A DNA stretch of 64,000 bases from assembly GCA_000092065.1 (NCBI GenBank), contig CP000583.1, one strand, 5' to 3'. This DNA comes from Ostreococcus lucimarinus (taxonomy: Eukaryota). Below the pieces are notes generated by a model. The model was not told the DNA's origin, searched no databases, and worked only from the letters and a program-made list of their open reading frames with translations. This document shows positions 831-57,862 of the stretch, piece after piece; the first letter of the stretch is position 1, and every line of letters begins with the position of its first letter. A program made the position numbers and the translations under genes.

Positions 831-850
831 CGCGGACTGTTTGCGCGTGC
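831..850. promoter_or_regulatory. Putative core-promoter motif GGACTGTTTGCGCGTGCG in the ORC5(-)/RPS6(+) divergent intergenic region.
   Basis: A 15-mer identical to 18985-18999 (GGACTGTTTGCGCGT). Related CACTGTTT/AAACAGTG elements lie in other 5' intergenic regions (9375-9437, 19041-19063, 31601-31618, 35972-35990, 45214-45232, 57836-57862). It sits about 120 nt upstream of the RPS6 ATG. Confidence 0.3.
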
Positions 851-953
851 GATGCACACGCGTCCGTGTTTCTTCGCGGCGCGCCCCCGAGACGCGACGC
901 GCGCGCGGGCGCGCCGCGCCGTCGCCCTCTTTCGACGACGCGCGCGCGCGACC

Positions 954-2039
954 ATGAAGGTGCGTCCATCGACGGGCGACGCGGGATGACGATGGGGATG
1001 ATTACGGCGCGCGACGACGGACGGCGCGCGACGACGGACGCGCGACGACGCGCGCGGACGCGACGGCGGACGCGAACGACGCGGGTTTGCGCGACGCGAC
1101 GATCGGGGACTGACGACGACGACGACGACGACGCGCGTGATCCACAGCTCAACATCGCGAACCCGCAGACCGGGGCGCAGAAGAAGATCGAGATCGTCGA
1201 TGAGAACAAGCTCCGATGCTTCTACGATAAGCGCATCTCCGCGGAGGTGGAGGGCGATGAACTCGGTGATGTGCGTGTTAGGGCTTTGCGATGCGACGCG
1301 ACGCGATGAAGCCGAGGACGCGAACGATGCGCGCGCGCGGACGCGACGGTGGTGCGCGTGGATGATTGATGAAGATAATGATGATCGTGAATTCGTACTG
1401 ACCGCGCGTGTGATGCGCTCGTTTCGTCGATAGGAATGGAAAGGCTACATCTTTAAGATCATGGGTGGCAACGACAAGCAAGGGTTTGGGATGAAGCAAG
1501 GCGTGTTGACGAACCAACGCGTGTTCTTGCTCATGTCTCAGGGCACGAGTGGTTTCCGTGGGAACGGTCGCCGTAAGGGTGAGCGCCGTCGTAAGGCGTG
1601 CCGTGGTTGCATCGTCTCCCAAGACATCGCTGTTTTGAACTTGCTCATCGTCAAGCAAGGCGACGCCGAGGTTCCGGGTTTGACGGATACCGAAGTCGCG
1701 CGCTTGCGTGGTCCGAAGCGTGCGAGCAAGATTCGCAAGCTCTTCGCGTTAACGAAGGAAGACGACGTTCGTCAGTACGTGAACACGTACCGCCGTGAGT
1801 TTGAATCCGCGACTGGCAAGAAGAAGTCCAAGGCGCCGAAGATTCAACGTCTCGTCACCCCGCTCGTCATCAAGCGCAAGCACGCGCGCGCGGCGGCGAA
1901 GAAAGTTAAGCAAGCCAAGTCCAAGGCGGAAGCCGCGGAATACCACAAGGTCCTTGCCCTCCGCATCCGAGAACAACGCGAGCGCAGAAGCGAATCCCTC
2001 GCCAAGCGCCGTGCGTCCTCCGTCGCGAAGAAGGCGTAG
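954..2039 (+). CDS. RPS6: 40S ribosomal protein S6 (eS6). Three exons: join(954..959,1148..1270,1434..2039), 244 aa.
   Basis: Exon 1 is ATGAAG (MK) followed by donor GTGCGT at 960. Exon 2 encodes [41 protein letters not shown] with donor GTGCGT at 1271. Exon 3 begins [25 protein letters not shown]...KKA*. The spliced product aligns end to end with eS6 (human [68 protein letters not shown]...). The acceptors are CACAG| at 1143-1147 and TAG| at 1431-1433. CTGAC branch points lie upstream of both acceptors. Confidence 0.85.
960..1147 (+). other. RPS6 intron 1 (188 nt), introner-like.
   Basis: GTGCGT donor, CTGAC branch at about 1110-1114, CAG acceptor. It shares the 19-mer CGCGCGGACGCGACGG(C/T)GG (1051-1069) with intron 2 (1334-1352). 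It also shares GCGGGTTTGCGCGACGC (1081-1097) with the THF1 intron (23591-23610, opposite strand) and with the CCT1 intron (60650-60668, opposite strand). Confidence 0.6.
1271..1433 (+). other. RPS6 intron 2 (163 nt).
   Basis: GTGCGT donor, branch CTGAC at 1397-1401, TAG acceptor. It has the internal motif shared with intron 1. Confidence 0.6.
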
Positions 2040-2284
2040 GCTGAGGCAAAGATTTCTACTAGTGAAATGGATGGGATTTGGTGATTTAGTGTACTCAGAG
2101 ACGGAGATTGATCGCGACGCCGGTGACGCATCGCGAAACAAAGCTTAGCAGCTTACTATTCTTCGCACGCGACTTGTAATCGATGCGACGAAAATTCAAA
2201 AACACGCCGACGCGCATCAAACGCCCCCTCCGGAAAGTGGAATTCATTTTGAAACCAACCGTCGGCATCACACATCGCCGCGCG

Positions 2285-2914
2285 ATGGATTCGCTCGCCT
2301 CGCGCGCTGTCGCGTCGACGACCGTGTTAAAGACCGGTCCACGATCGATGCGCTCGCCGCGTCTGTCGATGCGACGCGCGGGTTCGTCGCGCGACAAAGT
2401 GTTAACTCGAATGGGACACGGCGACTCGTCGATGAGCGAAGACGAAGACGATTACGCGAGCGACATCAATCGCACGCCGTACTACACCCAAACCGAGCGC
2501 AAGTTTTTAGACATGATCACGATTCAGGCCTTGAAGAACTTGCTGCACTTTTTGCAGGAGACGAACGGCGAGATGCACATGTATTTGCACAACCACATCA
2601 CCGAAAATCCGTTTGAGCTCAGCGAGACGAGGTCGATGGAGGATTGGTTGACAGATCTCGCGGCGAAACCGTTGACGCGGGTGAACGATCCGCGGCGTTC
2701 ATCCGTGCCCGGGCCGGCGATGGACGAGGAGGCGTTGAGAAAGGGGCGAGAGATATCGCCGAGAGATTTAGTTGAGAGGATATTACAAGCGCGCTCAAAC
2801 GTCGCGGAAGAACTAACCAGAGAGCTGAGCGCGCCTCGTCTGGCGGTGAAAAACAATAAAATATTTACCGCGGCGTTGGCGTCGACGTTTCGATTGAGTG
2901 ATGACGACGTTTGA
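2285..2914 (+). CDS. RBCX: RbcX-like RuBisCO assembly chaperone, plastid-targeted. An alternative upstream ATG is at 2183.
   Basis: The N-terminus MDSLASRAVASTTVLKTGPRSMRSPRLSMRRAGSS looks like a transit peptide. The core TQTERKFLDMITIQALKNLLHFLQETNGEMHMYLHNHITENPF matches the cyanobacterial/plant RbcX signature (..LQSYLTYQALRTVLAQLGETNPPLALWLHNFS..). Confidence 0.55.
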   Translation: MDSLASRAVASTTVLKTGPRSMRSPRLSMRRAGSSRDKVLTRMGHGDSSMSEDEDDYASDINRTPYYTQTERKFLDMITIQALKNLLHFLQETNGEMHMYLHNHITENPFELSETRSMEDWLTDLAAKPLTRVNDPRRSSVPGPAMDEEALRKGREISPRDLVERILQARSNVAEELTRELSAPRLAVKNNKIFTAALASTFRLSDDDV

Positions 2915-3128
2915 TGACGACGTTTAGTTTAGGAAAACATCCGCGCGCGCAAAGTAGCCACGCGCGCGGGGATTTAAATTAATGTGACCTGTCGCGTTCC
3001 AACAGCGCATCGTTCGCGCGTCGTCGATTCGTCCGCGCGCGCGTCGACGCGCTGTCGCTCGTCTCGTTTCAGTATAGTACATCTAAAAGTTTCAAGTTTC
3101 TAGTCGACAAAACGTCGATGAAAAAAGT

Positions 3129-5489
3129 CTACGCGAGATAAACGTACATTTTTCGATCGCTCGGATCCCTCTCGATGTATTCACGCTCAATCAAGGTCTC
3201 GATGTGTTTTTTGATATCCGCGGGTGTGGGCATGAAACGGTTCCTGACTTGAGCCGTGACTTCCATGACGATGCTGTTGTGATCGAGCCGCTTCTTCGCC
3301 TTCATCACGCGCACAATGGTGGCCTCGATCTGCGGCTTACGATCGTCTACGATTTTGCTTTTCGTCAACGATCTTTCGTGATCGTTCTCTCGCTTGGCAG
3401 AAATGGACAAGATTTTGACCTTGGTCGTCTTAGATGAGAAGTCTCGATTGACTTGAAACGAGTCTCCCAAGCTCACATCTTTCCCAGCGGGCAACTTTGT
3501 GAGAATATTTTTCCCCTTGACGCACGAAAGCGCTTGCAAGCAACCCTTGAGCTCGTCGCCTATCATTCCAGTAAGATCCGAAATATCTTTTGTGGTCAAA
3601 GTCTCGTGCGTGTTGAAAAGCATGAGGACACACATGTGCAGCGTCGACGCAGAAATTTCATATTCACCGCTCGCAAACCTAGCCTTAATGTCGGCCCGGC
3701 CCATGTTCGCCTGCCAAGTGAGCTTTCGACCGGCGTGACGCGAGAGGTAGAAATTTTCAAAAACCTTGCACGTCCTCTCGCATTCATGGGGTAAGTTGAT
3801 CGGAGTTTTATGCACCTTCAAGGGCCAGGCTCCGGTGGTCAACACCGAGACATTTACTTCCATCGATCCCGAGCCTCTTGAGTAAACACCTTCAAACTCC
3901 CTCGTCAAGTCACCCGAAGTGAGCATGTCGTTGAACATGCCCTCCATTCTACTCGTGAATGTAAATCCACAATCGTCCTTGAGTTTACCGATGAACGCGA
4001 GCTCGTTATCGTCGCTTGCGGAGCGCTTGTTTAGCAACCTCTTCGACAAGTGTTGGCGATAATAATTCTCAAACACATCCTTCTCGTGAAATAGGTGGAA
4101 GAGCCCCATCGATCGGTTCAGGATGATCTCCAGTTCGCTCTGACTCGCGTCTTTTGACGATTTCCTCAACATGTGATCCAAATAAAGCGACAAATACTCG
4201 GGTGATCTAGGATTCAAGTTTGCGACGAGTTGATACGCCTGATTGCACTGCGACTCGATGAGGCGATTATTTGCAAACGCCTCGATCAAGATTGTGTCAT
4301 ACTTCTCCTTGAATTTGAAAAGCTCTTCGACAAACTGTGTCGGATTCTTTTCATTTTCTAAATCATTCACGATCGACTTGCCGATTTCCTTAAGATGATT
4401 GAACATCACGTCTGGAATACCCTCGAGATCGTCCATCGTCGAAAACAGCGAGTACATGCGACGCAAGTTTTCGATCTGGTTCGCTCGAAGCATGTGCACC
4501 ATGCCACTCGTAGCGTTATGCAATAGTGATTGTGACATCTCCTTCAATAACTGGTTGCGCGCTTGCTCAAGTAAAAGGCCTGTTGTTCGAGGAGCCATGT
4601 AAGCTTCACTTCGGTCCTTCTCTTGCGCCAGTCTCGCCTCCGCCATCCTCAAGAACGTCGGGCAGTCGTCGATATCGATTCGTTTCTGCGCCACCGCCTT
4701 GTAGTAAGATCTTGTCTCATCGAGCATTTTAACTTCGAACTCATCTACGTAAACAGATTCGTGCAAAGTGAGTAACATGGACGTCACCTTTTGCAACGCG
4801 TCCCTATCCACGCTCTCGCCGTCGCGCTCGCGGCGGATCAAATCTAACATGCACGAGTGCATCCGTCGTCTAATGCGTGGATTATTTACCACACACTCCC
4901 TCCAAAGCGTTATTACGAGATCCCCCACGGGTTCTAAGTTCGCGTTCCCGCTCCGCTTCAAGTGCACGCGATCGAGATAGATGAAGACGTCGGTCAGCAT
5001 TTGCGCGCTCTTTCTGTGCCGCGCAAATCGCGTCTCCAAATCCTTCAAAAATTCAACATCCCCCACCACGTCCGCGATCTTACTCGCCACGTGCAAGCAC
5101 AAATGATCTGTTACCGCGTCGCTTATGGTGTTATACAGCGCATCACCCTGTTTCCGAAGCACCAACGCGTACGCCTTACCGTACAGCTCCTCGTACGACA
5201 ACCCTTCGCTGCTCAGGTTCAACAGCTCCGTCGTCGCCGTTCGAAGCGTTCGAAGCGTCGTCTCCACGAACGACGGATCGGCGTCCACGCGATGTCTGAA
5301 CGGTTCCAACGCCGTCGTCGTCGCCGTCGTCGCCGCGCGCGAGCGCGCGCGCGACGCCTGTCCCGACGCGTCGCGTTTCCGTCCCACGACGCCGTCGCGC
5401 TCGCGCTCGCGCGCGCGCGCGTCGCTCGCCGCGCGCGCGCGCGCGTCGTCGCCGTCGACCGCGTCGCGCGCGTTCGCCGCGCGCGTCAT
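3129..5489 (-). CDS. CUL4: Cullin, CUL4-like with an N-terminal extension. Single exon, 786 aa.
   Basis: Cullin repeats run throughout, and the C-terminal cullin-homology/neddylation region reads IVRVMKAKKRLDHNSIVMEVTAQVRNRFMPTPADIKKHIETLIEREYIERDPSDRKMYVYLA. There is a true ATG at 5487-5489. Confidence 0.8.
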   Translation of the reverse strand: MTRAANARDAVDGDDARARAASDARARERERDGVVGRKRDASGQASRARSRAATTATTTALEPFRHRVDADPSFVETTLRTLRTATTELLNLSSEGLSYEELYGKAYALVLRKQGDALYNTISDAVTDHLCLHVASKIADVVGDVEFLKDLETRFARHRKSAQMLTDVFIYLDRVHLKRSGNANLEPVGDLVITLWRECVVNNPRIRRRMHSCMLDLIRRERDGESVDRDALQKVTSMLLTLHESVYVDEFEVKMLDETRSYYKAVAQKRIDIDDCPTFLRMAEARLAQEKDRSEAYMAPRTTGLLLEQARNQLLKEMSQSLLHNATSGMVHMLRANQIENLRRMYSLFSTMDDLEGIPDVMFNHLKEIGKSIVNDLENEKNPTQFVEELFKFKEKYDTILIEAFANNRLIESQCNQAYQLVANLNPRSPEYLSLYLDHMLRKSSKDASQSELEIILNRSMGLFHLFHEKDVFENYYRQHLSKRLLNKRSASDDNELAFIGKLKDDCGFTFTSRMEGMFNDMLTSGDLTREFEGVYSRGSGSMEVNVSVLTTGAWPLKVHKTPINLPHECERTCKVFENFYLSRHAGRKLTWQANMGRADIKARFASGEYEISASTLHMCVLMLFNTHETLTTKDISDLTGMIGDELKGCLQALSCVKGKNILTKLPAGKDVSLGDSFQVNRDFSSKTTKVKILSISAKRENDHERSLTKSKIVDDRKPQIEATIVRVMKAKKRLDHNSIVMEVTAQVRNRFMPTPADIKKHIETLIEREYIERDPSDRKMYVYLA

Positions 5490-5569
5490 CGCCGCCGGGC
5501 GCGCTGTGCCGATCGTTCGCTGGATTCGAATCGAGCCGAGTCGAATCGCGACAGACGGCGACGCGCTTC

Positions 5570-7540
5570 ATGGGCGCCGACGGCGACGCCGTGCGCGACG
5601 CGCTCGCGAACGCGGTCGAAGCGATCGCGCGCGATGTCCCGAACGCGCGCGGCACGGACTTATCCCTCGAGAGCGCGAAGGAGAAGGCGACGCGCGCGCA
5701 AAAGCTGCCCGCGCGGGACGCGCTGCTCGCGGTGAAACGGTGCTGGACGACCGCGACGCACGAACCGGGGAATCGACTGCGGGAAAAGGAGCTGGCGGAG
5801 GTGATGCGAACGTTTAACGAGGCGTGGTTGAAACAAGGCCTGACGGGGACGCCGTTGGACGATGGGACGTGGTCGTTTAGAGTGGCGCGAGTGAATCGAA
5901 ACGCGGCGAAGCGATGCCTCACGGCGCTGGGGAACTGGGCGAGGAAGGGAGCGTGGGAACCGTGGACCGGGGAGTGCCGAAAGATGAGGGATGAGGTGAT
6001 GAAGAAGGAGGACGGGGCGTACGATACGTACGCGCAAGTGCATCGGGGATTGGAAGCGTTGCGAGCGCGCGCGACGACGGGCGTGAGAAATTTGGTAAAC
6101 GATGGCGAGAGCGAGGTGACGTACGAACATGCGCTGGAGTTTGATAAAGAATTACAGAAATGGATCGAAACGTGCTGGCTTGAGAACGGACTGCCGCCGT
6201 TGGACGAATTGCCGAAGTCGAACGAGGTGTTTTACGCGAGCGGAATGGTACACACAGAGATGCCTCTTTCGTCCAAGCGAGCGCCGCCAAGGGATCGTTC
6301 GCAACCGATAAGCCCCGCGACGGCGCCGGCGAAGAAGGCAAAAACGATAAAAGATGAGAGATTACAGAGCCCGGTGAGAGCAAATGCGGAATTACCGCGA
6401 TCGGTGAAAAAGGAACCGAAGGAGCCCGGCGCGGCGGCAGTGCTGCGCTCACCGACGCCGCATTCGCCGACGCCATGCGAAACCGCCAAGCCGCCGGCGC
6501 GCGAGACGGAGATGCACGTCATCAGACACTCTGTTGCAGTCACGGTGAAGGTGCGCTGCTACGGACTAGACGCAGACTTGGTCATCATCCCGCCCTTTGG
6601 AGTGCCGAGCGGAGTGAAAACAAATGGCGAGATGGCTGCCATGGTATTTCGAGAGACTCAAGCCGCGCAGCAAGCGAATGTGCAACCAGCTGAATCTTCG
6701 ATGAGATGCACGCATAACGATGGTAAGGCGTGGCGGTGTCCCGGACGTAATCTGGAAGGTACGCCGTTCTGCACGAAGCATCAACCAGCGAAATTTTCCA
6801 CTTTGGCTCGCGTCAATCCAGTCACGTTTGAAACGGCACAAGGTTTATCGATTACGTACGCCGGTCCTCCATCGGCGTGCGTTATTCGAAGTGTTTCTGG
6901 CGTGCCAATCGATGACTCGGATTTGTTGATGCTTAAAGATCCGGAAAAGTTTGAAGCCTTTGCGTGGGACATCGAGCGTCAATTGAAATCTTGTGAAGGG
7001 CTCGTTCGACGAGACGGTGCCGGTGGACGATTCCGTGAGAATGCTTTCGTACTCGAACGCGGAGGATTTTGGGTCCCATACACTCAGTATGAAGCTCGAT
7101 TAACCACGCTTCTCCCAGGCACGCCACCCGGTTCGACCACCACGTCGGAAAGCGTGTTCAACCAATGTATTGAAGACATCGGCGCAATCAACACCGCACG
7201 CGTGGCCGAGCAAGCGAACGACGACGAGACTGAGAAAAGCAACGATGATGATGACAAACGAGAGAGCGCGCCGCCTGCAGAGCGTCCGGCTTTCGACGAT
7301 CCGATGGATACCGACAGTCCGGGACGAGCCAAAGTGCCAGCACCGACTGGCGCTCGAGAAGTGCGTCTGAAACTTGCAGAGCTTCATAGACAACTCCTCA
7401 ACGTGGATCGAGAAATCGTAGGCATGCGCGATGCTGGCTTCGCGCACGCTAAGAAACGTGATCCACAGAGTCTCGACAATAGCGAAAATAGCGAATATGA
7501 CGCGTACGAGCAGAGCGTGAATCGCGCGCTTCGCCTTTAG
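5570..7540 (+). CDS. Hypothetical protein with a WRC (Trp-Arg-Cys) zinc-finger domain, 656 aa.
   Basis: It contains CTHNDGKAWRCPGRNLEGTPFCTKH, which matches the plant WRC domain consensus (CRRTDGKKWRC...YCERH). The rest of the protein is low-complexity or novel. A true ATG is at 5570, only 80 bp from the divergent cullin ATG. Confidence 0.5.
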   Translation: MGADGDAVRDALANAVEAIARDVPNARGTDLSLESAKEKATRAQKLPARDALLAVKRCWTTATHEPGNRLREKELAEVMRTFNEAWLKQGLTGTPLDDGTWSFRVARVNRNAAKRCLTALGNWARKGAWEPWTGECRKMRDEVMKKEDGAYDTYAQVHRGLEALRARATTGVRNLVNDGESEVTYEHALEFDKELQKWIETCWLENGLPPLDELPKSNEVFYASGMVHTEMPLSSKRAPPRDRSQPISPATAPAKKAKTIKDERLQSPVRANAELPRSVKKEPKEPGAAAVLRSPTPHSPTPCETAKPPARETEMHVIRHSVAVTVKVRCYGLDADLVIIPPFGVPSGVKTNGEMAAMVFRETQAAQQANVQPAESSMRCTHNDGKAWRCPGRNLEGTPFCTKHQPAKFSTLARVNPVTFETAQGLSITYAGPPSACVIRSVSGVPIDDSDLLMLKDPEKFEAFAWDIERQLKSCEGLVRRDGAGGRFRENAFVLERGGFWVPYTQYEARLTTLLPGTPPGSTTTSESVFNQCIEDIGAINTARVAEQANDDETEKSNDDDDKRESAPPAERPAFDDPMDTDSPGRAKVPAPTGAREVRLKLAELHRQLLNVDREIVGMRDAGFAHAKKRDPQSLDNSENSEYDAYEQSVNRALRL

Positions 7541-9118: not shown

Positions 9119-9374
9119 CGCGTCCCGTCCGCGGCGCGCGCGATCGAAAGAGTTCGCGCGTTCGTCGCCGATCGCTCGCGCGCGCGCGCTCGCGTCGCGC
9201 CGAGTCGCGTCGCGGTGCGTCGATCGATCGCTCCGACGCGCGCGCAGGGGGGGTGCGCGCGCGCGTCGACCGACGCGTCGATCGAATCGATCGCGCGGTC
9301 GGTCGTCGACCCGCGGTCGAGGGTCGCGCGATCGAGACGATCGACGACGCGAGGGTGACGCGCGTCGCGCGGTG

Positions 9375-9437
9375 ATGTGTGTGGGTAAACAGTGCGAGGG
9401 TGGTTTCGGTCGATGCGTTGTGTGGGTAAACAGTGCG
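9375..9437. repeat. Tandem duplication of a roughly 43-bp promoter element carrying GTGTGGGTAAACAGTGCG twice (9375-9392 and 9418-9435).
   Basis: The direct repeat is seen in the sequence between ALT(-) and the CCA enzyme(+). It carries the AAACAGTG motif that recurs in other 5' regions. Confidence 0.5.
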
Positions 9438-11356: not shown

Positions 11357-11417
11357 TAAACACAACACAATTGTATGATACACAAATGATACATAAATTT
11401 GACTACGTTTGCTAATC

Positions 11418-13568: not shown

Positions 13569-13907
13569 CGCGGCGCGACGTCCGGCGCCGGCGATTCGAC
13601 GGCGCCGCGCCGCGCGGTCGGTCGGTTCGCTTCAATACGACGCTCGATGGGACGGGCGTTTCGAGATCGTGGCCGCGTGACTGTTTGCGCACACGGAAAA
13701 GCGCGCGGGCCGGCGGCGTCGCCGGATCGATCGCTCGATCGCGTCGGCGTCGGCGGCTCGGCGGCGCGCGCGGCATCGCGCGACGCGCCGTCGGTCGTCG
13801 GAGGCGCGAAGGCGTGGACGCTCGACGCGCGGGACGCGACGTCGATCGGCGACGCGGCGCGGCGACGCGTTCGACGCGAGACGACGACGACGCGGGACGA
13901 CGGGACG

Positions 13908-18843: not shown

Positions 18844-18982
18844 CGTCGCGCGAACGCCGCGCGCGACGGCGCGGGACGCGAGCGTCGCGCGCGCGCGCGA
18901 GTGACGGTGGCGATCCGTCGCGCGGACGGCCCGTGTGCCGTTGGGCGTCCGACCGACCGCGCATGCTTCACATCCGCCGGAC

Positions 18983-19063
18983 TGTTTGCGCGTACGAAAA
19001 CGCGTCCGGTCGGTCGCATGGACGGTCCGACCGACCGCGCGTTTACACTGTTTGCGCGTACAG
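18983..19063. promoter_or_regulatory. Two copies of ACTGTTTGCGCGTAC (18985-19000 and 19047-19062) in the J-protein(-)/RPT2(+) bidirectional promoter.
   Basis: The first copy is 15 of 15 identical to 833-847. The second copy's 24-mer CGTTTACACTGTTTGCGCGTAC is nearly the reverse complement of 57836-57860. Confidence 0.35.
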
Positions 19064-19223: not shown

Positions 19224-20555
19224 ATGGGCCAGGGACAGAGCGCGGACGGCGGCGACGGCGCCGACGGACGCCACGGCCGGGGCAAGAAGAAGGAAAAGAA
19301 GAAGTACGTCCCGCCCGCGCCGCCGATGCGCGTGGGAAAGAAGAAGAAGAAGACCGGGATCGAGGGCAGCACGCGATTGCCGAACGTCGCGCCGCAGTCG
19401 AAGTGTAAGCTGCGGATGCTGAAGCTGGAGCGGGTGAAGGATTATTTGCTGATGGAGGAGGAGTTCGTGGGGAATCAGGAGCGGTTGAAGCCGCGAGAGG
19501 AGCGGGACGAGGACGAGCAGAGCAAGATTGACGAGATGCGGGGGGCGCCGATGAGCGTGGGGTCGTTGGAGGAGATCATCGATGACACGCACGGGATCGT
19601 GTCGTCGTCGATCGGGCCGGAGTATTACGTGAACATCGCGTCGTTCGTGGACAAGAGTCAGCTCGAACCGGGGTGCGCGGTGCTGTTGCATCACAAGAAT
19701 TCTGCCGTCGTGGGGACTCTGGCGGACGACGTCGATCCCATGGTGAGCGTGATGAAGGTTGATAAGGCGCCGTTGGAGTCGTACGCCGATGTTGGGGGAT
19801 TAGAGGATCAGATTCAAGAGATCAAGGAAGCCGTGGAGTTGCCGCTGACGCACCCCGAACTGTACGAAGACATCGGCATCAAGCCGCCGAAAGGGGTGAT
19901 CTTGTACGGAGCTCCGGGAACTGGGAAGACGCTGTTAGCTAAGGCGGTGGCGAACTCAACGAGCGCGACTTTTTTGCGCATCGTTGGATCTGAATTGATT
20001 CAAAAATACTTGGGCGACGGCCCGAAGCTCGTGCGCGAGCTCTTCCGCGTCGCCGACGAGATGAGTCCCTCTATCGTTTTCATGGATGAGATCGACGCCG
20101 TCGGTACGAAGCGATACGATTCTCAATCGGGCGGCGAGCGCGAGATCCAACGTACGATGTTAGAGTTACTGAACCAGATGGATGGTTTTGACTCGCGCGG
20201 CGACGTCAAGGTCATCATGGCTACGAATAGAATCGAATCGCTCGACCCCGCGCTCTTACGCCCGGGTCGAATAGATCGAAAGATTGAATTCCCTTTACCG
20301 GACGTCAAGACAAAGCGACACATTTTCAACATTCACACCGGGCGCATGAACCTTTCCGCCGACGTACAGTTGGAGGAATTTGTCATGGCCAAGGACGAAC
20401 TCTCGGGCGCCGACATCAAGGCGCTTTGCACCGAAGCCGGTTTGCTCGCCTTACGTGAGCGCCGAATGCAAGTAACGCACGCCGACTTCAGCAAGGCTAA
20501 AGAAAAGGTTTTGTACAAGAAGAAGGAAGGCGTGCCGGAGGGAATGTTTACGTGA
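19224..20555 (+). CDS. RPT2: 26S proteasome regulatory subunit 4 (RPT2/PSMC1), single exon, 443 aa.
   Basis: [10 protein letters not shown]... begins with an N-myristoylation-type [49 protein letters not shown] and the AAA module [16 protein letters not shown]...[11 protein letters not shown] follow. It is near-identical in pattern to human PSMC1. Confidence 0.9.
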
Positions 20556-23877: not shown

Positions 23878-23976
23878 GGCGTCGAAAAGTGCGGCCGCGG
23901 CGTCGACGTCGACGCGGGCGCGCGCGCGATGAAACGGTGGTCGAACTGTTTGGCTATAGGGGGATGGCGGACAAGG

Positions 23977-24999
23977 CTAGGACGCGCAACGCGCGGGAAA
24001 TCGTCGGTCGTGCTCGCGCGCGGTGGCGATCAAGTCCCCGGCGTCGCAGCGGAGGGCGAGCTTTTCGATCAACGCGCGCGCGCTGGTGAGCTGGGACTCG
24101 TAATCGGTGATGAGGGCGGCGACGGCGGCGTCGGCGCGAGACGCGCGCGCGTCGGAGGACGCGCGAGACGCGCGCTCGGAGACGAGAAGACGCTCGACGC
24201 GAGCGAGACGAGCGGAGACGCCCTCGGCGTGACGCTTGATGAGACTCATCTGGCGCTCGCGGCGGGCGACGTCGGCGAGTTTGACGGTCACGGCGTCGCG
24301 CTCGAGGGTGACGGCGCGAAGCGCGCGGCGGAGGCGCGGCGACTCCTCGTTCGCGTCCGAGACCTCGTTCGCGGACAGCCTCTCGGCGAGCTCGAGGTGA
24401 CGGCACTCTCGTAACGCGAAGTTTTCTTTCCCGAGTCGATCGATCTCGTCGTCGTACGACTCGAACACGCCCAACCATCGCTCTGGGACGTCGCGGCGCA
24501 ACTGTTTGCACCGCTCTCGCCACTCGTTCGCCGTCGATCGCGCATCTTCCACCGCTTCCCACGCCTCGGCGTCTCGCTTCGATCGATCCGCTTCTAATTC
24601 ATCTAACTTCATCTCCACTCGAGCGCGCGCGCGCTGCTCTTCGCGGAGTAAACGTAAGAGCGTCTCCGGCGTCTCGAGCGCGCGCGGTCGCGGACTCGAA
24701 TTCGCCCCCGCGTCCTCCCTCCGCGTCTCTTTTCGCCGTCTCCCTCCCTCCCGCGACGCGAACGCCTCGAACGCGCGCTCGAACGTTTCGTCCTCCTCGA
24801 CGTCGAGCTCGCTCGCCGGCGCCGCGCGCTCGGCGCGAGGAATCCGAACGCGCTCGACGAGCTCGCGCAAATCTTTTGCAACGTTCGGCGACTTTAAACT
24901 CGTCGACGTCGACGCCTCGCTCGCCTCGTTCGCGCGCTCGCGCGTGAGTTCGTCGTAAAGCGCATCGAAGGTTTCCGACGACGACTTCGCGCGCGGCAT
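23977..24999 (-). CDS. Hypothetical coiled-coil protein, 340 aa.
   Basis: It has a true ATG, a diverse composition, and long heptad-like E/R/L-rich stretches. I recognise no family. Confidence 0.4.
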   Translation of the reverse strand: MPRAKSSSETFDALYDELTRERANEASEASTSTSLKSPNVAKDLRELVERVRIPRAERAAPASELDVEEDETFERAFEAFASREGGRRRKETRREDAGANSSPRPRALETPETLLRLLREEQRARARVEMKLDELEADRSKRDAEAWEAVEDARSTANEWRERCKQLRRDVPERWLGVFESYDDEIDRLGKENFALRECRHLELAERLSANEVSDANEESPRLRRALRAVTLERDAVTVKLADVARRERQMSLIKRHAEGVSARLARVERLLVSERASRASSDARASRADAAVAALITDYESQLTSARALIEKLALRCDAGDLIATAREHDRRFPARCAS

Positions 25000-28901: not shown

Positions 28902-29483
28902 TTAAGCGACAATCATGTTGTTCGCCTCCGCGAAGCGCTTCTTTTCGGCCGCCGCCGCCGAGGCGTCCATCTTCGCCAACTTGGCCTCCTTCCACTTCGG
29001 GATGTAAAGCGGCTTCGGGCCCTTCGGCGCGCGCTTGTTCTGCTTCACCGGTTCCGAACCATTTTCCGCCAACCACTGCTTGCGTTCCGGATCCGCATCA
29101 ATGTACGGCAACGACGCCAAATCCAACCCGGCGCGCTTCGCCATCTCCTCCAACCCGAGCTTGTTGAGCGTCTTCAACGCATTGGTGGAGATGCGCAGGC
29201 GCACGTAGCGCTTTTGCTCCGGCCAGTAGATGCGCTTGTACTGTTATCGATAAAATATTCTCTCCGTCAGTCTCTCACTCACACACTCGTCCTGCGCGTC
29301 GCCAAGTCGTCGCGCGCGCCCGTTCAGGGTTTCAGGGTTGCCCCCAGCCTTTCGCCATCGTCCTCGCGCGTCACGCACCTGTAAGTTAACCTGCTGCAGC
29401 GTCTTGTTACGAATGTGCGAGAACGAAACAGTGCGACCGTTGTTCGCCTTCTTCCCCGTCAACATGCACTTGCGTCCGGACAT
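28902..29483 (-). CDS. RPL28: Organellar 50S ribosomal protein bL28. join(29379..29483,28902..29240).
   Basis: Exon 1 reads [35 protein letters not shown] (E. coli [34 protein letters not shown]). Its donor is GTGCGTG at 29372-29378, branch CTGAC, and acceptor CAG at 29241-29243. Exon 2 reads [32 protein letters not shown]. Confidence 0.7.
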
Positions 29484-31404: not shown

Positions 31405-32424
31405 GTTCGGCGTTTGTCGTTAATTTAATGAAGGTGAGAAAATGTGCGTTCGGTCGTCGAACAATGTGTTCGCTCGATCGATCTAGATGTGGTTCCTTAC
31501 GACGACAACGCGACTAGACCCGACGTCTAGCGCAAAAAATTGATATCAATCACTCGTCCGTCCTCTGTCGTTCGCGCGCGCGCCACGTGTCGTCAGTCAC
31601 TTCGCACTGTTTACCCATACGCCAATTTGGGATCTGATCTCGGTTCGTTCGCCTTCGCCGACCCTCCACGAGTCGAAACTCAAGAAATGACCCCCCGCCC
31701 CGGGAAAATCCCAGTGAAATCTTTCCGGGTGTCCGCGCGTTCGGTCCCCCGTTTCGAGGTTACCGCCGACGCCCGCCCCCCCCCCGCGCGCGCGTCGCCG
31801 CGTCCCGCCCCCCCCGCGCGCGCGATCGACGCTCAATCTTTCCCTCCACCGTTTCCGATCGTCTCCCAGGGCTCACCGCGTTCGCGCGCGCGTCCCCACC
31901 GCCCGCGCGCCGTCGCGAAATCCCGAGGGCGCGTCGCGTCTGATTCCGTTGCCGCACCTCGTCGCGACGCGTTCGCGCGTCGCGCGTCGCGCCTTTTCGC
32001 GCGACCTTCGACGCGAGCGTCCGAGATTTGTTTCCTTTCGATCCCTCGCGAAGTCGCGCGCGAGAATCGAGAGGTCCGAGCGGCGCGCGCGGCGTCGCCG
32101 AGTGTCGCGCGCGCGTCCTGCGGTTAGGGCGCCGCGCCGTCTCCACCGCGCCTCGCGCCCCGTGGACGCGCGCGGACCGCGGGAAATGGATCGCGCCGTC
32201 GAGTCGCGATTCGTCGTTCGGGGGGGGGTCGGCGCGCGCGACGCGAAGATTCGGTGAGATCTCGATTTTTCGCGAAGGGGCGCGTCGTTTCGCCGTTGAT
32301 GGCGTCTTGGAGGGATTAAACGCGTGAAATTTCTCGCATGTATACATAGGGCGCGGGGCACGCGACGCGAGGCGCCGTCGCGCCGTCGCGCCATCGCGCG
32401 ACGCGGCGACCGCGCGACCGCGCG

Positions 32425-35971: not shown

Positions 35972-35990
35972 TGTTACACTGTCCTCGTGC
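35972..35990. promoter_or_regulatory. CACTGT-type promoter motif (TTGTTACACTGTCCTCG) about 50 nt upstream of the EF-P ATG.
   Basis: On the sense strand it reads ..GACAGTGTAACAACAG.., which resembles CAAACAGTGTAAACAG at 57842-57857. Confidence 0.25.
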
Positions 35991-44994: not shown

Positions 44995-45213
44995 CGTCGT
45001 CTGTGCGGCGTTCGAGATCGAACGTGCGATCGCGGGCGTTGACGAAGGCGTCTTCGTCGTCGGCTTCGCGCGCGGGCGTCGGTCGGACGCGTCGCTGTGC
45101 CGCGCGAGCGTCGGCGGCGGGGCGCCAATCTTATCTCGGCGCGCGCGTGACGTCGTCGTCGTTCGATTTAATGGGTAGTCGGTGTGTTCGTATGCGTGCA
45201 CGCGGGCACTGTT

Positions 45214-45232: not shown

Positions 45233-45570
45233 CAGTCATTATCAGTTGTGTGCTGTTTATGTAAATACCCGGAATCGACGTCATTGGGTATAAGTCCGAA
45301 TGTCCGATTTTGCGGCTGAGGACGGAGTGATGGATGTAAATTTGAACCGATGGTGATGAAACTCCGCGAAATCACGCGTAATCAACGGTCGAAAATGGCT
45401 AGACGCCGCGCGCGCGGGCGCGCCGTGTCGGTCCGGCCGCAAAGATATGATTCAAAGTCTCGGTCGGTCGCGCGGCGGAGAGCGCGGGGAGGAAGTCTGG
45501 CTCGCGCGCGCGAAGGATCGCGCGCGAGAAAACTGTTTGCTTGTAAATAATCGTGGTGGTGATGATATTA

Positions 45571-50577: not shown

Positions 50578-50859
50578 GACTGCGACGTCACGTGTCGTTT
50601 TCTGTCCCGTCGCGCGTTCGTTCGACGATCCCCGTCGCCCCTTTTACGCCCTCGCGCGACGCCTCCTCGATATCGATCGCCGCGCGCGCGCGACGAACAA
50701 TCTCGATCACTTTCGCGTCGAACGTTCGCGAGCGGCGAGCGCGCGCGCGTCGCGATCGCCCGCGCGGCGCGACGTGTGGGATGAATGCGCGTCCCACGCG
50801 CGTCCCACACGTCCCTCGTCCAGCCTGCGCCGTCGGACCTCGATGCCGCGATCGATCGC

Positions 50860-51100
50860 GACCAAACTCGATCGACGCGTCTCTCGATGGACGAAAGTCG
50901 GTTCATTCGATCGATCGATCGATCGATCGATCGATCGATCTACACACGCGTCTCTCGATCGACGGAAGTGGGTTCAATCAATCGATCGATCGATCTACAC
51001 GTCTGTCGATCGACGTCGATCGATGTTTCGTCGACGCGAGTAGGTTCAATCGATCGATCGATCTACGCGTGCGTCGATCGACTTTCTAGATGGTTCAGAC
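50860..51100. repeat. Roughly 60-bp GATC-rich minisatellite, 3–4 units with (GATC)n cores, in the PHD(-)/IPT(+) divergent promoter.
   Basis: Repeated units GGTTCAATCGATCGATCGATC(GATC)nTACACGCGTCTCTCGATCGACGGAAGT start near 50888, 50951 and 51046. (TCGA/GATC)n cores lie at 50900-50940, 50980-51000 and 51050-51062. Confidence 0.7.
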
Positions 51101-52601: not shown

Positions 52602-52673
52602 CGTTATAGATCATTAGAAGGATAGGCAAAATTGTTTTACAAACGCGTGTTGAACCGTAAATCGATTGAGGTT

Positions 52674-53501
52674 TCACGTTCCTGGAAGCTTAGGCACGAG
52701 CACCGGAGTCTTCCTTTTGTACGACTGATACCCCTCGTCCTTGCCCCATCTCTCATCGGCCATTCGTTCCAAAATTGGAATACCGCTCATCTTTGTCAGC
52801 AAGTAGGTGACGAAGAGTGGCGACGCAAACGCTCCGGCCGCTCGACCCGGATTCGACGCCGCCAAACCGTTGCAAGCGATTCCCGCGACCCCGAACCACA
52901 TGCAAATCTCGCCGAAGTAGTTCGGATGACGAGACAGGGACCACAAACCGTGCTTGATGTACTTGCCTTTGTTCGACTTGTCCGACTTGAAGGCAAACTT
53001 TTGTACGTCGGCGACGACTTCGAAGACGAACCCAAAGGCCCAAAACGCCGCCAGCGTCCAATCCACCGCGTTCAGATCCACCAATTGACCCGGAGACCCG
53101 TTCAACAGATACACCGGTAACGACGTCACCCACACCCACACGCCTTGGAGGAACCAATACACCGCGAACACCCCGGGCTTGTCCTTCACGCCGTCGAATC
53201 GCGAGTCCCCGCCGTCCCTGTGCGCCCTCGCGCCCAAGAATATCCCCAATCTCGCCGTCCACGCCATCGCGAGCGCGCTCGCGAGCTTCTGCCGCGGCAT
53301 CATCGCCGACGTCCCCAGCGTCAGCGCCGCCGTCGTCGCGAACGCCGCGCTCCCCAGAATGTCGTAAAACTTCTCCGTCCGCAGCGTCGCCGCCGCCGCC
53401 CAACCGACGAGCTGGATCCCAAAGTCCACGAGCGCCGCGCCGAGCATGCTCGACTGCATCGCGCCGCCGCCCATCCACGACAGCGCGTCCGCGCGCGTCA
53501 T
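52674..53501 (-). CDS. DUF1295-family integral membrane protein (steroid 5-alpha-reductase / ERG4-ERG24 / ICMT-like fold).
   Basis: HGLWSLSRHPNYFGEICMWFG is the DUF1295 signature. The start MTRADALSWMGG at 53499-53501 is assumed, and an upstream R-rich extension is possible. Confidence 0.6.
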   Translation of the reverse strand: MTRADALSWMGGGAMQSSMLGAALVDFGIQLVGWAAAATLRTEKFYDILGSAAFATTAALTLGTSAMMPRQKLASALAMAWTARLGIFLGARAHRDGGDSRFDGVKDKPGVFAVYWFLQGVWVWVTSLPVYLLNGSPGQLVDLNAVDWTLAAFWAFGFVFEVVADVQKFAFKSDKSNKGKYIKHGLWSLSRHPNYFGEICMWFGVAGIACNGLAASNPGRAAGAFASPLFVTYLLTKMSGIPILERMADERWGKDEGYQSYKRKTPVLVPKLPGT

Positions 53502-53750
53502 CGCACGCGAGGGCGCGCGCGCGCGCGCGCCGAGCGACGTTCCCGCGCGCGTCGAACGCGCGCCCTCGCCCTCGCGTCCCGCGCGCCCTCGCGCCGCGCG
53601 CGCGCCGCGCTCGGGCGCGCGCGCGCGTCGACGCGCGCGCCAGGCGACGTCGCGCCGCGCGCCGTCGCCGAACCGCGAGAGCGCGCTCGCTCGACCGCCG
53701 AAGGGCGACATGTGCGGCGGGGCGTCATCCGCATTCGTCGACGCGACGCC

Positions 53751-55445
53751 ATGTCGACGGCGACGCCGGCGCGCGCGGTCGCGCGCGCGCCGCCGCGATG
53801 GACCGGTAGGAGCGCGCGCGCGCGCGCGCGGGCGGTGACGCGCGCGGCGGAGGAGGACGACGCGCGAAGCGCGCGAGTGGTGGACTTGTTCGAAGCCGCG
53901 GCGACGCCCATGGGCGCGGCGGCGCGCGCGGAGGCGGCGATGGCGGCGGTGCGAGCGATGACGAGCGTGCGAGAGACGGCGACGTCGAAGACCGAGGCGG
54001 TGACGACGGGAGGAGGGGAAGGGGCGACGAGCGGGAGCGCGAGCGGGAGCGCGCCGAGGTCAACCGGGACGACGACCGGGGCGTCGGGCGCGGCTGACGG
54101 CGCGGTGATGAAGGGAGGGAGGTCCGCGAACGATTCAGGGTTGAAAAACACCGCGAAGAAGGCGTCGAAGCCGAAGGCGGAGACTTTCAACCCCGGGAGC
54201 GACTTTTGGACGTGGACGCCGCCGGAGGCGGCGGGTTCGGATAAAGTCGCCGCCGCCGCGGCGCCAAAGTTGCAGAGACAGACAGAGACTCGCGTGAGCG
54301 CGGCCGTGGCGGTCGCGGAGCGCGCGCCCGAGGCTTCGCTTCAGTTGAAGTTTCAAAGCGACGTCGAGACGCCGAGCGAGTTGAAGCTTGAATTCGAAAG
54401 CGACGTCGTTTTGGCGAAGGAACCGGCGCCGCTGAGCGACACGCCGACGGTGGAGCTAGAGGAAACTGCGACCGCCGTGCGCGAGCTCGGCGCAGATGGG
54501 GAAACCGAAGGTACACTTGAAAATGGTTCGAGGTGGTGGCGCGAGTCAGGCGAAGAGGAACTCGAAGGCGGGAAGCTGTGTCGATGGACGCTCGTCCGAG
54601 GCGCCTCCGCGGACGGTTCCGTCGAGTGGGAAGAAAAATGGTGGGAGACGAGCGATGCTTTCAACTATCGGGAACTCGGGGCGATCAAATCGGGGAGAGA
54701 CGCCAAGGGCAACGTGTGGCAAGAAAGCTGGCGTGAGCAAGTGACTCACGACACCACCACCGGTTTCTCAAACGCCTCGAAGCACATCATGAGAGAGGCG
54801 AACAAGTGGGGTGCGCAAGCCGACGGCGCCGAATGGCACGAAGTGTGGGACGAGAACTACTGGGGCGACGGTCAAGTGAAGCGTACATGTACAAAAAAAG
54901 GTGCGATCGCGAACGGCGCGACTCCAGACGACGGTCACGGTAATCGTTGGACGCACAAGTGGGGCGAGGAGTGGGACGGTCACGGTGGGTGCGTCAAGTG
55001 GACGGATTCCTTCGCCGACCGCGATCAGAGCGAGGACGGTGGAAGCGGACGTGCCTGGGGTGAAAAGTGGGAAGAACGATGGGGGGGATACGCTCACAAC
55101 GGGAGTGCGGGGAATCGCAACGGGAGCACATGGGACGATCGCGACGGGCACAAATTTGAGAAGACGTGGGGCGAGGAGCACTGGCACGACGGTCGCGTCC
55201 ACAAATGGGGCGCCACCACCGATGGTTCCGACGGTTGGGACACCTGGGAAGACAGTGCCGGTTGGTGGGAGCGCGCACCGAGCTTCGGATGGGACGAAGC
55301 CGTCTCGCACTCACCGCAACTCCTCAACGTCCCGCTTCGTCCGCGAGGCACCGGAGTCGAACCCGGAAAGAAAAAGTCCATCGGTCGAGCTCCCGGTCGA
55401 ACGATCAAGCCACCGCCGGGGTCGCGTCTTCACAATCCAGATTAG
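53751..55445 (+). CDS. Tryptophan-rich repeat protein resembling plant starch-granule proteins ESV1/LESV. Plastid-targeted.
   Basis: The C-terminal half is built of degenerate W-rich repeats: WREQVTHD..KWGAQADGAEWHEVWDENYWGDGQV...RWTHKWGEEWDGHGGCVKWTDSFADRD..RAWGEKWEERWGGYAHNG..STWDDRDGHKFEKTWGEEHWHDGRVHKWGATTDGSDGWDTWEDSAGWWERAP. The N-terminus MSTATPARAVARAPP is cTP-like. The first 200 aa of the track ORF are antisense read-through. Confidence 0.5.
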   Translation: MSTATPARAVARAPPRWTGRSARARARAVTRAAEEDDARSARVVDLFEAAATPMGAAARAEAAMAAVRAMTSVRETATSKTEAVTTGGGEGATSGSASGSAPRSTGTTTGASGAADGAVMKGGRSANDSGLKNTAKKASKPKAETFNPGSDFWTWTPPEAAGSDKVAAAAAPKLQRQTETRVSAAVAVAERAPEASLQLKFQSDVETPSELKLEFESDVVLAKEPAPLSDTPTVELEETATAVRELGADGETEGTLENGSRWWRESGEEELEGGKLCRWTLVRGASADGSVEWEEKWWETSDAFNYRELGAIKSGRDAKGNVWQESWREQVTHDTTTGFSNASKHIMREANKWGAQADGAEWHEVWDENYWGDGQVKRTCTKKGAIANGATPDDGHGNRWTHKWGEEWDGHGGCVKWTDSFADRDQSEDGGSGRAWGEKWEERWGGYAHNGSAGNRNGSTWDDRDGHKFEKTWGEEHWHDGRVHKWGATTDGSDGWDTWEDSAGWWERAPSFGWDEAVSHSPQLLNVPLRPRGTGVEPGKKKSIGRAPGRTIKPPPGSRLHNPD

Positions 55446-55615
55446 TAAACGTATTATTTCGTTATTCCCGTGACGTCGATTACACGCAGCTTTCGATCGA
55501 GTACATGCTCGTGCGTGACTAGCCTCGCCGTAGGTCTCGTAGCAGGTTAACCAGAGACGCGACTCAGACCCATCCCACTCGTCGACGCCTCGCGCTCGCC
55601 GACGCGCTCCTCACG

Positions 55616-57649
55616 ATGCGCGTCGCGTCTGTCGCGTCGCGCGCCGTCGTCTCGCGCGCCTCGCCGCCGTCTCGCGCGTCCTCGCGCGCGCAATCGTCAC
55701 CGCCGTCGACGACCACGCCCGGCGGCGGCTCGCGGCGAATCGTCACCGCGCGCGCGAAGAAATCTTCGCGCGCGGGCGCGGGCGACGCCAAGTACGCGGT
55801 GAAAACGACGGAAGACGCGCTCAAGTACGACCCCACGAAGTCTCTCGCGGACGTCCTCGCGTCCAAGGACGACGCGGACGAAGCGAATGGGAATTCGAGC
55901 AACGACTGGGCGAGCTCGCTCGCGGCGTTTCGAGAAGAAAAGGCGACGAAGGATCGCACGCGAGCGGAGATGGGAGCGGAGATGGCGGACATGGAAAGGA
56001 AATCGAACGAAAGCGATGATTTGATGGACACGACGTGGGTGACGGAGGCTGGGACGGTCGCGAGACGAGAGTTTAGGGGATTGAACGCGGGAGAGGAGGA
56101 GGCGACGTTCGGAGACGACGAAGCCGAATTCGTGGCGTTTGGGACGAATGAGGACGACGGCGAGGAAGTTTGGGGACCCGGTGATGAAGGGTTTGAAGTG
56201 TACATGTACGATGACGATGATGACGAGGGGGAGGGTGAAGTCACTCAGGAACGGGGTCGGGGAATACCGCGGGAGATGCGGTGCTTTGACACGGCGAAAA
56301 TTTACGTAAAGGCTGGCGACGGCGGTGATGGTCAGGTTGCGTTCAGGCGAGAAAAGTTCGTGCCGCAAGGTGGACCATCGGGGGGTAACGGTGGGATCGG
56401 CGGCGCGGTGTATATTGTCGCCGATAAGAACATGAATTCTTTAGATGGATTTAGAAAAAAAGTGCACCATCGGGCCGAGGCGGGCAAACGGGGGCTCGGA
56501 TCGAAGTGTGCCGGCCGTAACGGTCGCGATTTGGAGATCTTGGTGCCACCCGGAACTATCATTCGCGACAGTCGGAGCAAAACAATCATCGCAGAGATCA
56601 CGAAGGCTGAACAGCGAGTGATGGTGCTCGCGGGCGGTCGAGGCGGTCGAGGGAACGCGTCCTTCAAGACGGCGAAGAATAAGGCTCCGATGATTGCGGA
56701 GTTGGGCGAAAAAGGACGTGAGTTCTGGGCTGAGATGGAACTCAAACTCGTCGCCGATGTGGGAATAATTGGCATACCCAACGCTGGGAAATCAACCTTA
56801 CTCGCGAGCGTGAGCGCGGCGAAACCAAAGATTGCCGACTACCCGTTTACGACCATCGTGCCAAATTTGGGCGTCGTAGAGCGCGACTACGAGCGCATGG
56901 TGTTTGCAGACATCCCGGGTTTGCTCGAAGGGGCGTCGGAAGGGATTGGTTTAGGTTTCGAGTTCCTTCGCCACACAAAGCGAACGCGCGTGCTCATTCA
57001 CGTCATCGACTGCGCGAGCGAGACGTGCTTTGAGGCGTACGACGCGATTCGCACCGAGCTCGAACTCTTCGACGAAGCCTTGCTCGAAAAGCCCGAAATC
57101 GTCGCTTTAAACAAAGTGGACGACATCGAAGCCACGGAGCGAGCGCTGCAAATGAAGGAAAAGTTTGACGCCGAGGGCATCTCTTCGCACTGCGTCTCCG
57201 CCGTCACGGGTGAGGGCGTGGAGGAGCTCCTCGCCGACGTCCAAGCCGCCCTTCGCGCCCTACCTCCGGTCGAAGATGCCTGGGCCGCTGATATCGCGGA
57301 AACGGGCGTGCGCGCCGCGGATGGAAAATCCATCGAAGATTTCACAATCGACGACACCCCGTACGCGTTCGTCGTCGCCGGCGAAGCCATCGAGCGTTTC
57401 ACGCAAATGACAAACTGGGACTATTTCGAGTCCTACAAGCGCTTCGGCCGCGTCCTCGAAATGGCTGGCATCGACGCCGCCCTCAACGCCGCGGGCGCGG
57501 GCGAGGGCGACCGTATCATCATCGGCGACTTCGAGTTCGAGTGGAGCAAGGACCGCCGCGACCGCACCCTGTACGAATCCTTCAGGCAACGCGTCGCCGA
57601 CGCCCCCGGCGGCCAGCGAGGCAGCCGCCACTGGCCCCACGCGTCGTGA
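55616..57649 (+). CDS. OBGC: Obg-family GTPase, chloroplast ObgC-like, with an N-terminal extension.
   Basis: The Obg fold is KIYVKAGDGGDGQVAFRREKFVPQGGPSGGNGGIGGAVYIV. The G domain is GIIGIPNAGKSTLLASVSAAKPKIADYPFTT...DIPGLLEGASEG. The C-terminal OCT/TGS-like domain is FTIDDTPYAFVVAGEAIERF. Confidence 0.85.
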   Translation: MRVASVASRAVVSRASPPSRASSRAQSSPPSTTTPGGGSRRIVTARAKKSSRAGAGDAKYAVKTTEDALKYDPTKSLADVLASKDDADEANGNSSNDWASSLAAFREEKATKDRTRAEMGAEMADMERKSNESDDLMDTTWVTEAGTVARREFRGLNAGEEEATFGDDEAEFVAFGTNEDDGEEVWGPGDEGFEVYMYDDDDDEGEGEVTQERGRGIPREMRCFDTAKIYVKAGDGGDGQVAFRREKFVPQGGPSGGNGGIGGAVYIVADKNMNSLDGFRKKVHHRAEAGKRGLGSKCAGRNGRDLEILVPPGTIIRDSRSKTIIAEITKAEQRVMVLAGGRGGRGNASFKTAKNKAPMIAELGEKGREFWAEMELKLVADVGIIGIPNAGKSTLLASVSAAKPKIADYPFTTIVPNLGVVERDYERMVFADIPGLLEGASEGIGLGFEFLRHTKRTRVLIHVIDCASETCFEAYDAIRTELELFDEALLEKPEIVALNKVDDIEATERALQMKEKFDAEGISSHCVSAVTGEGVEELLADVQAALRALPPVEDAWAADIAETGVRAADGKSIEDFTIDDTPYAFVVAGEAIERFTQMTNWDYFESYKRFGRVLEMAGIDAALNAAGAGEGDRIIIGDFEFEWSKDRRDRTLYESFRQRVADAPGGQRGSRHWPHAS

Positions 57650-57835
57650 AAACGTCAATCGCGCGCCCACCGTCGCCGTCGCGCGCCCGCGTCGTCGCCG
57701 CTGTAACCATCGAATCCAACGCGACGCCGCCTCCTCGCCGCGCCTCGCCACCGCCCCTCGGACGTCGACGCGCGCCCGAACGAAGCGCGCCTCTCCTCGC
57801 CCGCGCGGGACTCGAGCGCTCAACTGTACGCGCAA

Positions 57836-57862
57836 ACAGTGTAAACAGCACCACCGCGATCG
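57836..57862. promoter_or_regulatory. GTACGCGCAAACAGTGTAAACAGCACC. This is the reverse-complement orientation of the motif at 19041-19063.
   Basis: Twenty-one contiguous nucleotides match the reverse complement of 19043-19063. It lies between the Obg 3' end and the bZIP gene. Confidence 0.3.

Follow-up and report, generated by a model that had tools for sequence, protein, structure and literature searches.

We analyzed a 64,000-nt stretch of nuclear DNA from Ostreococcus lucimarinus (contig CP000583.1; this whole stretch is referred to below as the window) and found that a 15-bp unit, ACTGTTTRCSCRYRC, recurs in spacers that hold gene starts. The unit consists of an ACTGTTT core followed by a second half of the form RCSCRYRC, and it occurs in eight exact copies distributed over six intergenic regions. 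We consider it probable, at roughly 55%, that a sequence-specific factor binds this unit, in whichever orientation, at promoters shared by neighboring genes.

A discrete 15-bp unit in intergenic DNA

The window is gene-dense, with about 37 genes and few introns, and the protein encoded by its RPT2 gene (19224–20555) is identical to XP_001416670.1 from O. lucimarinus CCE9901. A gene map based on codon usage divided the window into 49.7 kb of coding and 14.3 kb of non-coding sequence. There are 11 divergent and 10 convergent spacers, and about 19 spacers in all bear promoters. Chance levels were taken from 100 shuffles and, for k-mers, from an order-2 Markov expectation. A maximal-order Markov k-mer test gave no signal, as the motif is absorbed into its own sub-words, and the order-2 model was used instead.

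A sequence-only reading of the window had proposed that a near-identical element recurs in its 5′ regions. The recurrence is indeed far above chance: CACTGTTT has 9 matches compared with 1.12 expected, a count reached in none of the 100 shuffles. In the non-coding sequence ACTGTTT was found 12 times against an expectation of 0.59, compared with only three occurrences in the coding sequence, and it is the top enriched 7-mer in the spacers when low-complexity words are set aside. The oriented contexts of this core revealed a constrained second half, and the true unit is the 15-mer ACTGTTTRCSCRYRC. It is absent from all 100 shuffles, although the consensus was built on the very window that supplied the counts. 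In half of the copies, the second half reads GCGCGTAC rather than ACCCAYAC. When the 64 kb were scored with a 23-nt position weight matrix (PWM), the scores were bimodal, with the eight copies at 23.8–32.2 and the next best match at 13.3. The eight copies and one weak, core-only copy are as follows.

836–850, plus strand: ACTGTTTGCGCGTGC, exact match to ACTGTTTRCSCRYRC, PWM 25.5; divergent spacer between an ORC5-like gene (ATG 625, minus) and RPS6e (ATG 954, plus), 104 nt before the RPS6e ATG
9379–9393, minus strand: ACTGTTTACCCACAC, first of two tandemly duplicated 41-bp units, PWM 25.2; divergent spacer between alanine aminotransferase (ALT; ATG 9118, minus) and CCA-adding enzyme (ATG 9779, plus)
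9420–9434, minus strand: ACTGTTTACCCACAC, second of the two 41-bp units, PWM 23.8; same spacer
13680–13694, plus strand: ACTGTTTGCGCACAC, PWM 25.0; divergent spacer between POP1 (minus) and ValRS (ATG 13908), 214 nt ahead of the ValRS start codon
18981–18995, plus strand: ACTGTTTGCGCGTAC, first of a pair, PWM 32.2; divergent spacer between a DnaJ-like gene (ATG 18846, minus) and RPT2 (ATG 19224, plus)
19047–19061, plus strand: ACTGTTTGCGCGTAC, second of the pair, PWM 29.0; same spacer, 163 nt before the RPT2 ATG
31606–31620, plus strand: ACTGTTTACCCATAC, PWM 27.2; 1-kb divergent spacer between a Myb-domain gene (ATG 31404, minus) and CDKAL1 (ATG 32425, plus), 202 nt from the Myb ATG, with a branch-point-like GACTGAC adjoining on the minus strand
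57826–57840, minus strand: ACTGTTTGCGCGTAC, PWM 28.5; tandem spacer from the Obg stop codon (57649) to the bZIP ATG (58313), 473 nt before the latter
23945–23959, plus strand: ACTGTTTGGCTATAG, weak core-only copy, PWM 10.1; 253 nt away from the start codon of THF1 (ATG 23692, minus)

The string GTCCGACCGACCGCGC precedes both the 18981 and the 19047 copies, which indicates a local duplication.

Coordinates in the sequence-only reading were off by 1–10 nt, and the 13680 site was missing from it. The pair of GGACTGTTTGCGCGT that it described exists, at 834 and 18979 rather than at 833 and 18985, and GCACTGTTTACCCA is present as well, at a corrected position of 31604. The tandem duplication of GGGTAAACAGTGCG was also recovered, at 9383 and 9424, with a spacing of 41 and not 43. 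For the 22-mer at 19040, the reverse complement, placed at 57836 in that reading, is found at 57826 and matches at 21 of 22 positions; the exact 22-mer has no match on the reverse strand. Two other instances, CACTGTTTTTTTT at 45207 and TACACTGT at 35975, had to be removed from the set and are discussed with the non-members below.

The motif also occurs outside the window. The flanking 16 kb, which bring the O. lucimarinus sequence examined for motif density to 80 kb, hold one further strong match, 343 nt from a β-amylase start. In L107, a contig of 14 kb that belongs to a different O. lucimarinus chromosome, there is a second PWM match, one that had not been used to find the contig.

Placement, orientation, and clustering

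All eight copies lie in spacers that hold at least one gene start, namely 5 of the 11 divergent spacers and one tandem spacer. The full motif is thus found in 6 of about 19 promoter-bearing spacers, or in 7 if the weak 23945 site is counted, and its attribution to most 5′ regions in the sequence-only reading was an overstatement. None of the ten convergent spacers contains a copy, yet these total only about 1.2 kb.

The distance from the motif to the nearest ATG ranges from 104 to 473 nt, a 4.5-fold spread that replaces the 50–240 nt first proposed. The earlier suggestion that the element is used in either orientation holds, since the motif can read with or against the nearest gene: it is in sense at RPS6e, ValRS, RPT2, and ALT and in antisense at Myb, bZIP, and THF1, an assignment that is ambiguous in divergent spacers.

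Homotypic tandem copies are present at two loci, 9379/9420 (spacing 41) and 18981/19047. We compared ten environmental assemblies of the same species (L016–L025; 99.6% identity), several of which have N gaps exactly at the repeat units. In these assemblies (4250–4475, corresponding approximately to window positions 13600–13700), the copy upstream of ValRS lies within a 93-bp unit that is present once, twice, or three times, and the 41-bp unit at 9379–9434 is present once or twice. When independent copies were aligned in a common orientation with 70 nt on either side, similarity was confined to about 20 nt, local tandem duplicates aside. No inverted partner scoring above PWM 9 was found near any strong site. 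Rfam and tRNA scans of the window returned no matches, so the motif does not serve any known small RNA gene as its promoter.

A second element near the motif

A second element, GCGGTCGGTCG (core GGTCGGTC), lies near the motif in either orientation at three of the six loci in the window. The window has seven GGTCGGTC sites, of which five are located 18–82 nt from a motif copy, as listed here.

9297–9304, plus strand: GGTCGGTC in the context GCGGTCGGTCG, 82 nt from the motif
13616–13623, plus strand: GGTCGGTC in the context GCGCGGTCGGTCGG, 64 nt from the motif
18951–19036: three GGTCGGTC sites, two on the minus strand (18951 and 19029) and one on the plus strand (19008), flanking both motif copies at 18–30 nt

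The GCGGTCGGTCG element is present at 45462 too. On the contig from another O. lucimarinus chromosome (L107), it was found near 9120, again beside the motif. Weaker GGTNGGTN-like strings occur near the remaining motif copies.

Conservation in relatives

The motif is retained in close clade-A relatives. In a sequence 95% identical to the window (L015), it is kept at orthologous sites, and 33 of 36 positions of the 9-nt core are unchanged, compared with 76% in the flanks (Fisher p = 0.018). The core of the 18981 copy is among those conserved, and the orthologue of the weak 23945 site reads ACTGTTTGCGCGGGG in this relative, with a PWM score of 15.0. At the site orthologous to 57826–57840, two further strains (L324, position 6651; L325, position 6684) carry GCTGTTTGCGCACAC in place of ACTGTTTGCGCGTAC. 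This version has a substitution in the core and, in its second half, a double change from GT to AC that remains compatible with RYRC.

Beyond these relatives, we found no copy, and no PWM score above 12.4, in the syntenic spacers of two other Ostreococcus lineages (L007 and L011) or in 21.5 kb of Micromonas pusilla CCMP1545. The L007 lineage, which is without the motif, has an enriched spacer word of its own, (G)ACGACCGGTG, at 279, 326, 11812, 11843, 14056, and 15301; these words are sometimes paired, about 30–45 nt apart. A single copy was found in Bathycoccus prasinos, 64 nt upstream of an open reading frame (ORF), on a contig that was itself found by the 15-mer search.

A metagenome scan was conducted with ACTGTTTGCGCGTRC. 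Among the matches listed, most were chance matches in unrelated sequences, and the informative ones were L107 (O. lucimarinus), L132 and L144 (Bathycoccus), L085, and a few GC-rich marine contigs. Two scans of viral contigs gave single chance matches and no sign of viral use of the motif. Two contigs from a marine eukaryote, L085 and L320, have repeated introns of about 85 nt, and inside these lies CACTGTTTGCCCATAC, a 16-mer that closely matches one motif variant, a resemblance that may be coincidental. These introns (L085 1000–1110 and 5190–5300; L320 7680–7790 and 9880–9990) share the layout GTACGTAT..TTTCCCAAATCCCACC.CACTGTTTGCCCATACA.GACTGACAC..YAG, and the organism is present in MMETSP and TARA data. 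Six metagenome contigs from an unrelated organism (L049, L062, L081, L096, L127, and L130) share about 65 nt around the 15-mer, TATGGGGTAGCCTAGTTACTTGTGTAGAGTACTGTTTGCGCGTGCGCCAGTGTTAGGGCTTTGTTTC, a stretch that may be a conserved non-coding element.

Non-members and splice signals

Several superficially similar sites were rejected as members of the motif. The site at 45207 scores below PWM 9; its opposite strand reads as a probable 3′ splice site (AAAAAAAACAG/T), with a GACTGAC branch point 20 nt before it. Scores below 9 were also obtained at 35975, a mere 8-mer overlap, and at 45532, which lies in the SufS 3′ untranslated region (UTR), 25–40 nt after the stop codon on the sense strand. The site at 29426 falls within an exon of the ribosomal protein L28 gene, and those at 24501, 36991, and 63646 are coding.

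The reverse complement of the motif starts with GTRYG and contains AAACAG, and we therefore considered whether the motif is a splice signal. That interpretation fits only the non-member at 45207; no branch points, acceptors, or other splice sites were found at the main motif sites. A second enriched word, GACTGACG, was rejected as a promoter element because it corresponds to the Mamiellophyceae intron branch point, an extended sequence known from Ostreococcus and Micromonas introns (PMC3879977). GACTGAC(G) occurs 11 times in the set called non-coding, compared with 0.9 expected. It was located at 1108, 13002, 23618, 29266, 29521, 30146, 31592, 35520, 35733, 45231, 50269, 60674, and 60865 and, as a branch point, marks unannotated introns, several of them 5′ (POP1, THF1, Myb, desaturase, CCT-alpha, and EF-P).

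Two known transcription factor sites were also compared with the motif. Neither TTTGCGCG nor TTTACCCA fits the E2F consensus (TTTSSCGC), and the GTAC core of an SBP-box site is present in only three of the eight copies, the rest reading ACAC, ATAC, or GTGC.

Sequence context of the window

The spacers and N-terminal coding regions have a GC content of about 64–67%, compared with about 52–58% in most of the coding sequence. The spacers being GC-richer than the coding sequence is the opposite of the usual AT-rich promoter pattern. Long imperfect (CG)n tracts occur in the spacers and the N-terminal coding regions alike; spacer examples are 5396–5485, 53502–53640, and 61228–61330. A 20-bp tandem repeat, GCGCGACGGTTGGGATAACGC, is present in 4.4 copies at 58112–58201, just upstream of the bZIP gene, and a 71-bp repeat rich in (TCGA)n occupies 50849–51063 in the long PHD/IPT divergent spacer. 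The RPS6e gene (954–2039) has two introns and a first coding exon of only 6 nt (ATGAAG/GTGCGT); on metagenome contigs, it is broken into fragments by ORF-based gene callers.

A putative factor-binding site at shared promoters

Our results suggest that the motif is a putative binding site because it is discrete and rich in information, is restricted to promoter-bearing spacers, follows no rule of orientation or distance, is present at about one-third of promoters, forms clusters, has a co-occurring element, and keeps its core in close strains. The same features, namely restriction to non-coding promoter regions, absence of an orientation rule, variable distance, tandem copies, a co-element, and a conserved core, agree with the suggestion of the sequence-only reading that the element binds a common factor. 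From the sequence, we infer both that a protein binds the motif and that this binding affects transcription. In the mechanism we propose, a sequence-specific DNA-binding protein would recognize ACTGTTT plus RCSCRYRC in mostly divergent, promoter-bearing spacers and, once bound, would act irrespective of orientation on one or both flanking genes. The motif, often in two or three tandem copies, may form a small promoter module together with an adjacent GCGGTCGGTCG. As a kind of sequence, a discrete promoter cis-element is ordinary.

Several observations weigh against a binding site of this type. The consensus was derived in the window where its copies were counted, which limits independent support to the flanking 16 kb and the tests on the 7-mer and the 8-mer. 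The sister lineages are without the motif, and M. pusilla is without it as well; one would expect greater age of a regulatory site in wide use, unless factor and site evolve fast. Exclusion from 3′ regions cannot be demonstrated in the window because its convergent spacers are so short. Finally, the flanking genes have no clear common function: translation or tRNA accounts for 5 of 11, compared with 6 of 26 elsewhere, a difference that is not significant.

An alternative is that the motif is a non-transcriptional chromosomal site, such as a replication origin, a hotspot of recombination or instability, or the site of a boundary or nucleosome-phasing factor in nucleosome-free spacers. We consider this unlikely. 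Its density of about one locus per 10 kb and its restriction to one lineage would suit such a role, and yeast origin consensus sequences are likewise lineage-specific. Tandem duplications or copy-number differences among assemblies at three of the six loci point in the same direction; however, the copy-number differences are in part assembly gaps (N runs), and the association of the motif with gene starts and with a second promoter-region element is more simply explained by transcription.

The sequence-only reading had also raised the possibility of a shared core-promoter or transcription start site element, which would set the RNA polymerase II start in the manner of an initiator or a TATA substitute. 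Confinement to promoter-bearing spacers agrees with this proposal, as do transcripts of relatives, in which the 5′ UTR is at least 59 nt long for RPS6 and 82–86 nt long for RPT2 of M. pusilla. With 5′ UTRs of at least 59–86 nt, the RPS6e copy, 104 nt before its ATG, would lie a few tens of nucleotides upstream of the start. The proposal nevertheless appears improbable, given that the motif marks no more than 6 of the roughly 19 promoter spacers, points away from the nearest gene at Myb (31606), bZIP (57826), and THF1 (23945), and varies in its distance from the ATG over the full 104–473 nt. Tandem copies 41–93 bp apart would moreover imply several start sites, and the orthologous promoters of sister Ostreococcus lineages and M. 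pusilla do without the motif.

More doubtful still is that the copies are relics or fragments of a mobile element, either a miniature inverted-repeat transposable element or an introner-like one, without a function of their own. Such an origin would account for the lineage-specific distribution and for the near-identical 16-mer CACTGTTTGCCCATAC in the repeated introns of the marine eukaryote, and introner families are known in Micromonas (PMC4540971, PMC3879977). Against it, the resemblance between independent copies ends after about 20 nt, which also answers the concern, raised with the original suggestion, that the element might belong to a dispersed repeat. The copies have no inverted partners, terminal repeats, or target-site duplications, and none lies in the approximately 50 kb of coding sequence or in recognized introns. 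Their positions are stable between 95%-identical strains, with the core better conserved than the flanks. The L085 contig, for its part, was found via a chance match in coding sequence, and its 16-mer has a rough p of about 0.08 after multiple testing.

A long shot would join elements of these accounts: the 15-mer may be bound by a general regulatory or boundary factor, fast-evolving and lineage-specific, that organizes the shared promoters of clade-A Ostreococcus, and a second marine green alga may carry the 15-mer within a family of introners. If this were true, mobile elements would spread or target the site, linking promoter architecture to intron gain. A chance or compositional artifact of GC-rich, low-complexity spacers, for which one might cite the abundance of CG-rich tandem repeats in the spacers and the origin of two motif pairs in local duplication, is refuted, as no shuffle reached the observed counts, the first half of the motif is AT-rich, unlike the spacers, six independent loci are left after duplicates are collapsed, and the motif is replicated in sequence outside the window.

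The Mamiellophyceae include the smallest free-living eukaryotes and serve as a model for compact genomes; to our knowledge, almost nothing is known of their promoter grammar. We did not find a description of the motif in the literature searched, which did not take in the work of Piganeau et al. 2009, and the motif is apparently undescribed so far. Extrapolated from the 80 kb, one locus per 10 kb would amount to the order of a thousand loci genome-wide. A binding site of the kind favored here would offer a handle for fishing out the binding protein, defining its regulon, and designing synthetic promoters. If it is functional, the fact that sister lineages share the gene order but not the motif would make it a clean example of fast cis-regulatory turnover.

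Comparison with known systems

The motif resembles the initiator and the TATA box in being found in promoter regions, within a few hundred nucleotides of start codons. Unlike these elements, it varies in orientation and spacing, marks about one-third of promoters, and occurs in tandem copies.

Micromonas introners such as E2-IEt1 run from a 5′ splice site through some 50 nt of conserved sequence to a GACTGAC branch point and a terminal AG (Simmons et al. 2015, PMC4540971). The L085 and L320 introns are introner-like in layout and match this description. The O. lucimarinus copies differ from E2-IEt1 in that they are intergenic, have neither splice sites nor branch points, and share the 15-mer alone.

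The motif also invites comparison with the conserved non-coding motifs that Piganeau et al. 2009 reportedly identified by phylogenetic footprinting in Ostreococcus, which are likewise intergenic cis-elements of the same genus. Since the motif is absent from two other lineages, footprinting of O. lucimarinus against another Ostreococcus species may fail to recover it.

Promoter-proximal motifs of compact genomes include the yeast Rap1 (ACACCCATACAT) and Reb1 (TTACCCG) sites, and in plants the telobox and site II elements lie upstream of translation-related genes. The second-half variants ACCCATAC and ACCCACAC (ACCCAYAC) bear what we take to be a resemblance to the Rap1 consensus; we know of no green algal orthologues of Rap1 or Reb1 with this specificity. 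Unlike the Rap1, Reb1, telobox, and site II motifs, which are conserved over long distances, the O. lucimarinus motif is not found in sister Ostreococcus lineages or in M. pusilla. What it has in common with all of them is that it is short and discrete, lies upstream of genes irrespective of orientation, is often present in several copies, is paired with a second element, and marks a subset of mostly housekeeping promoters.

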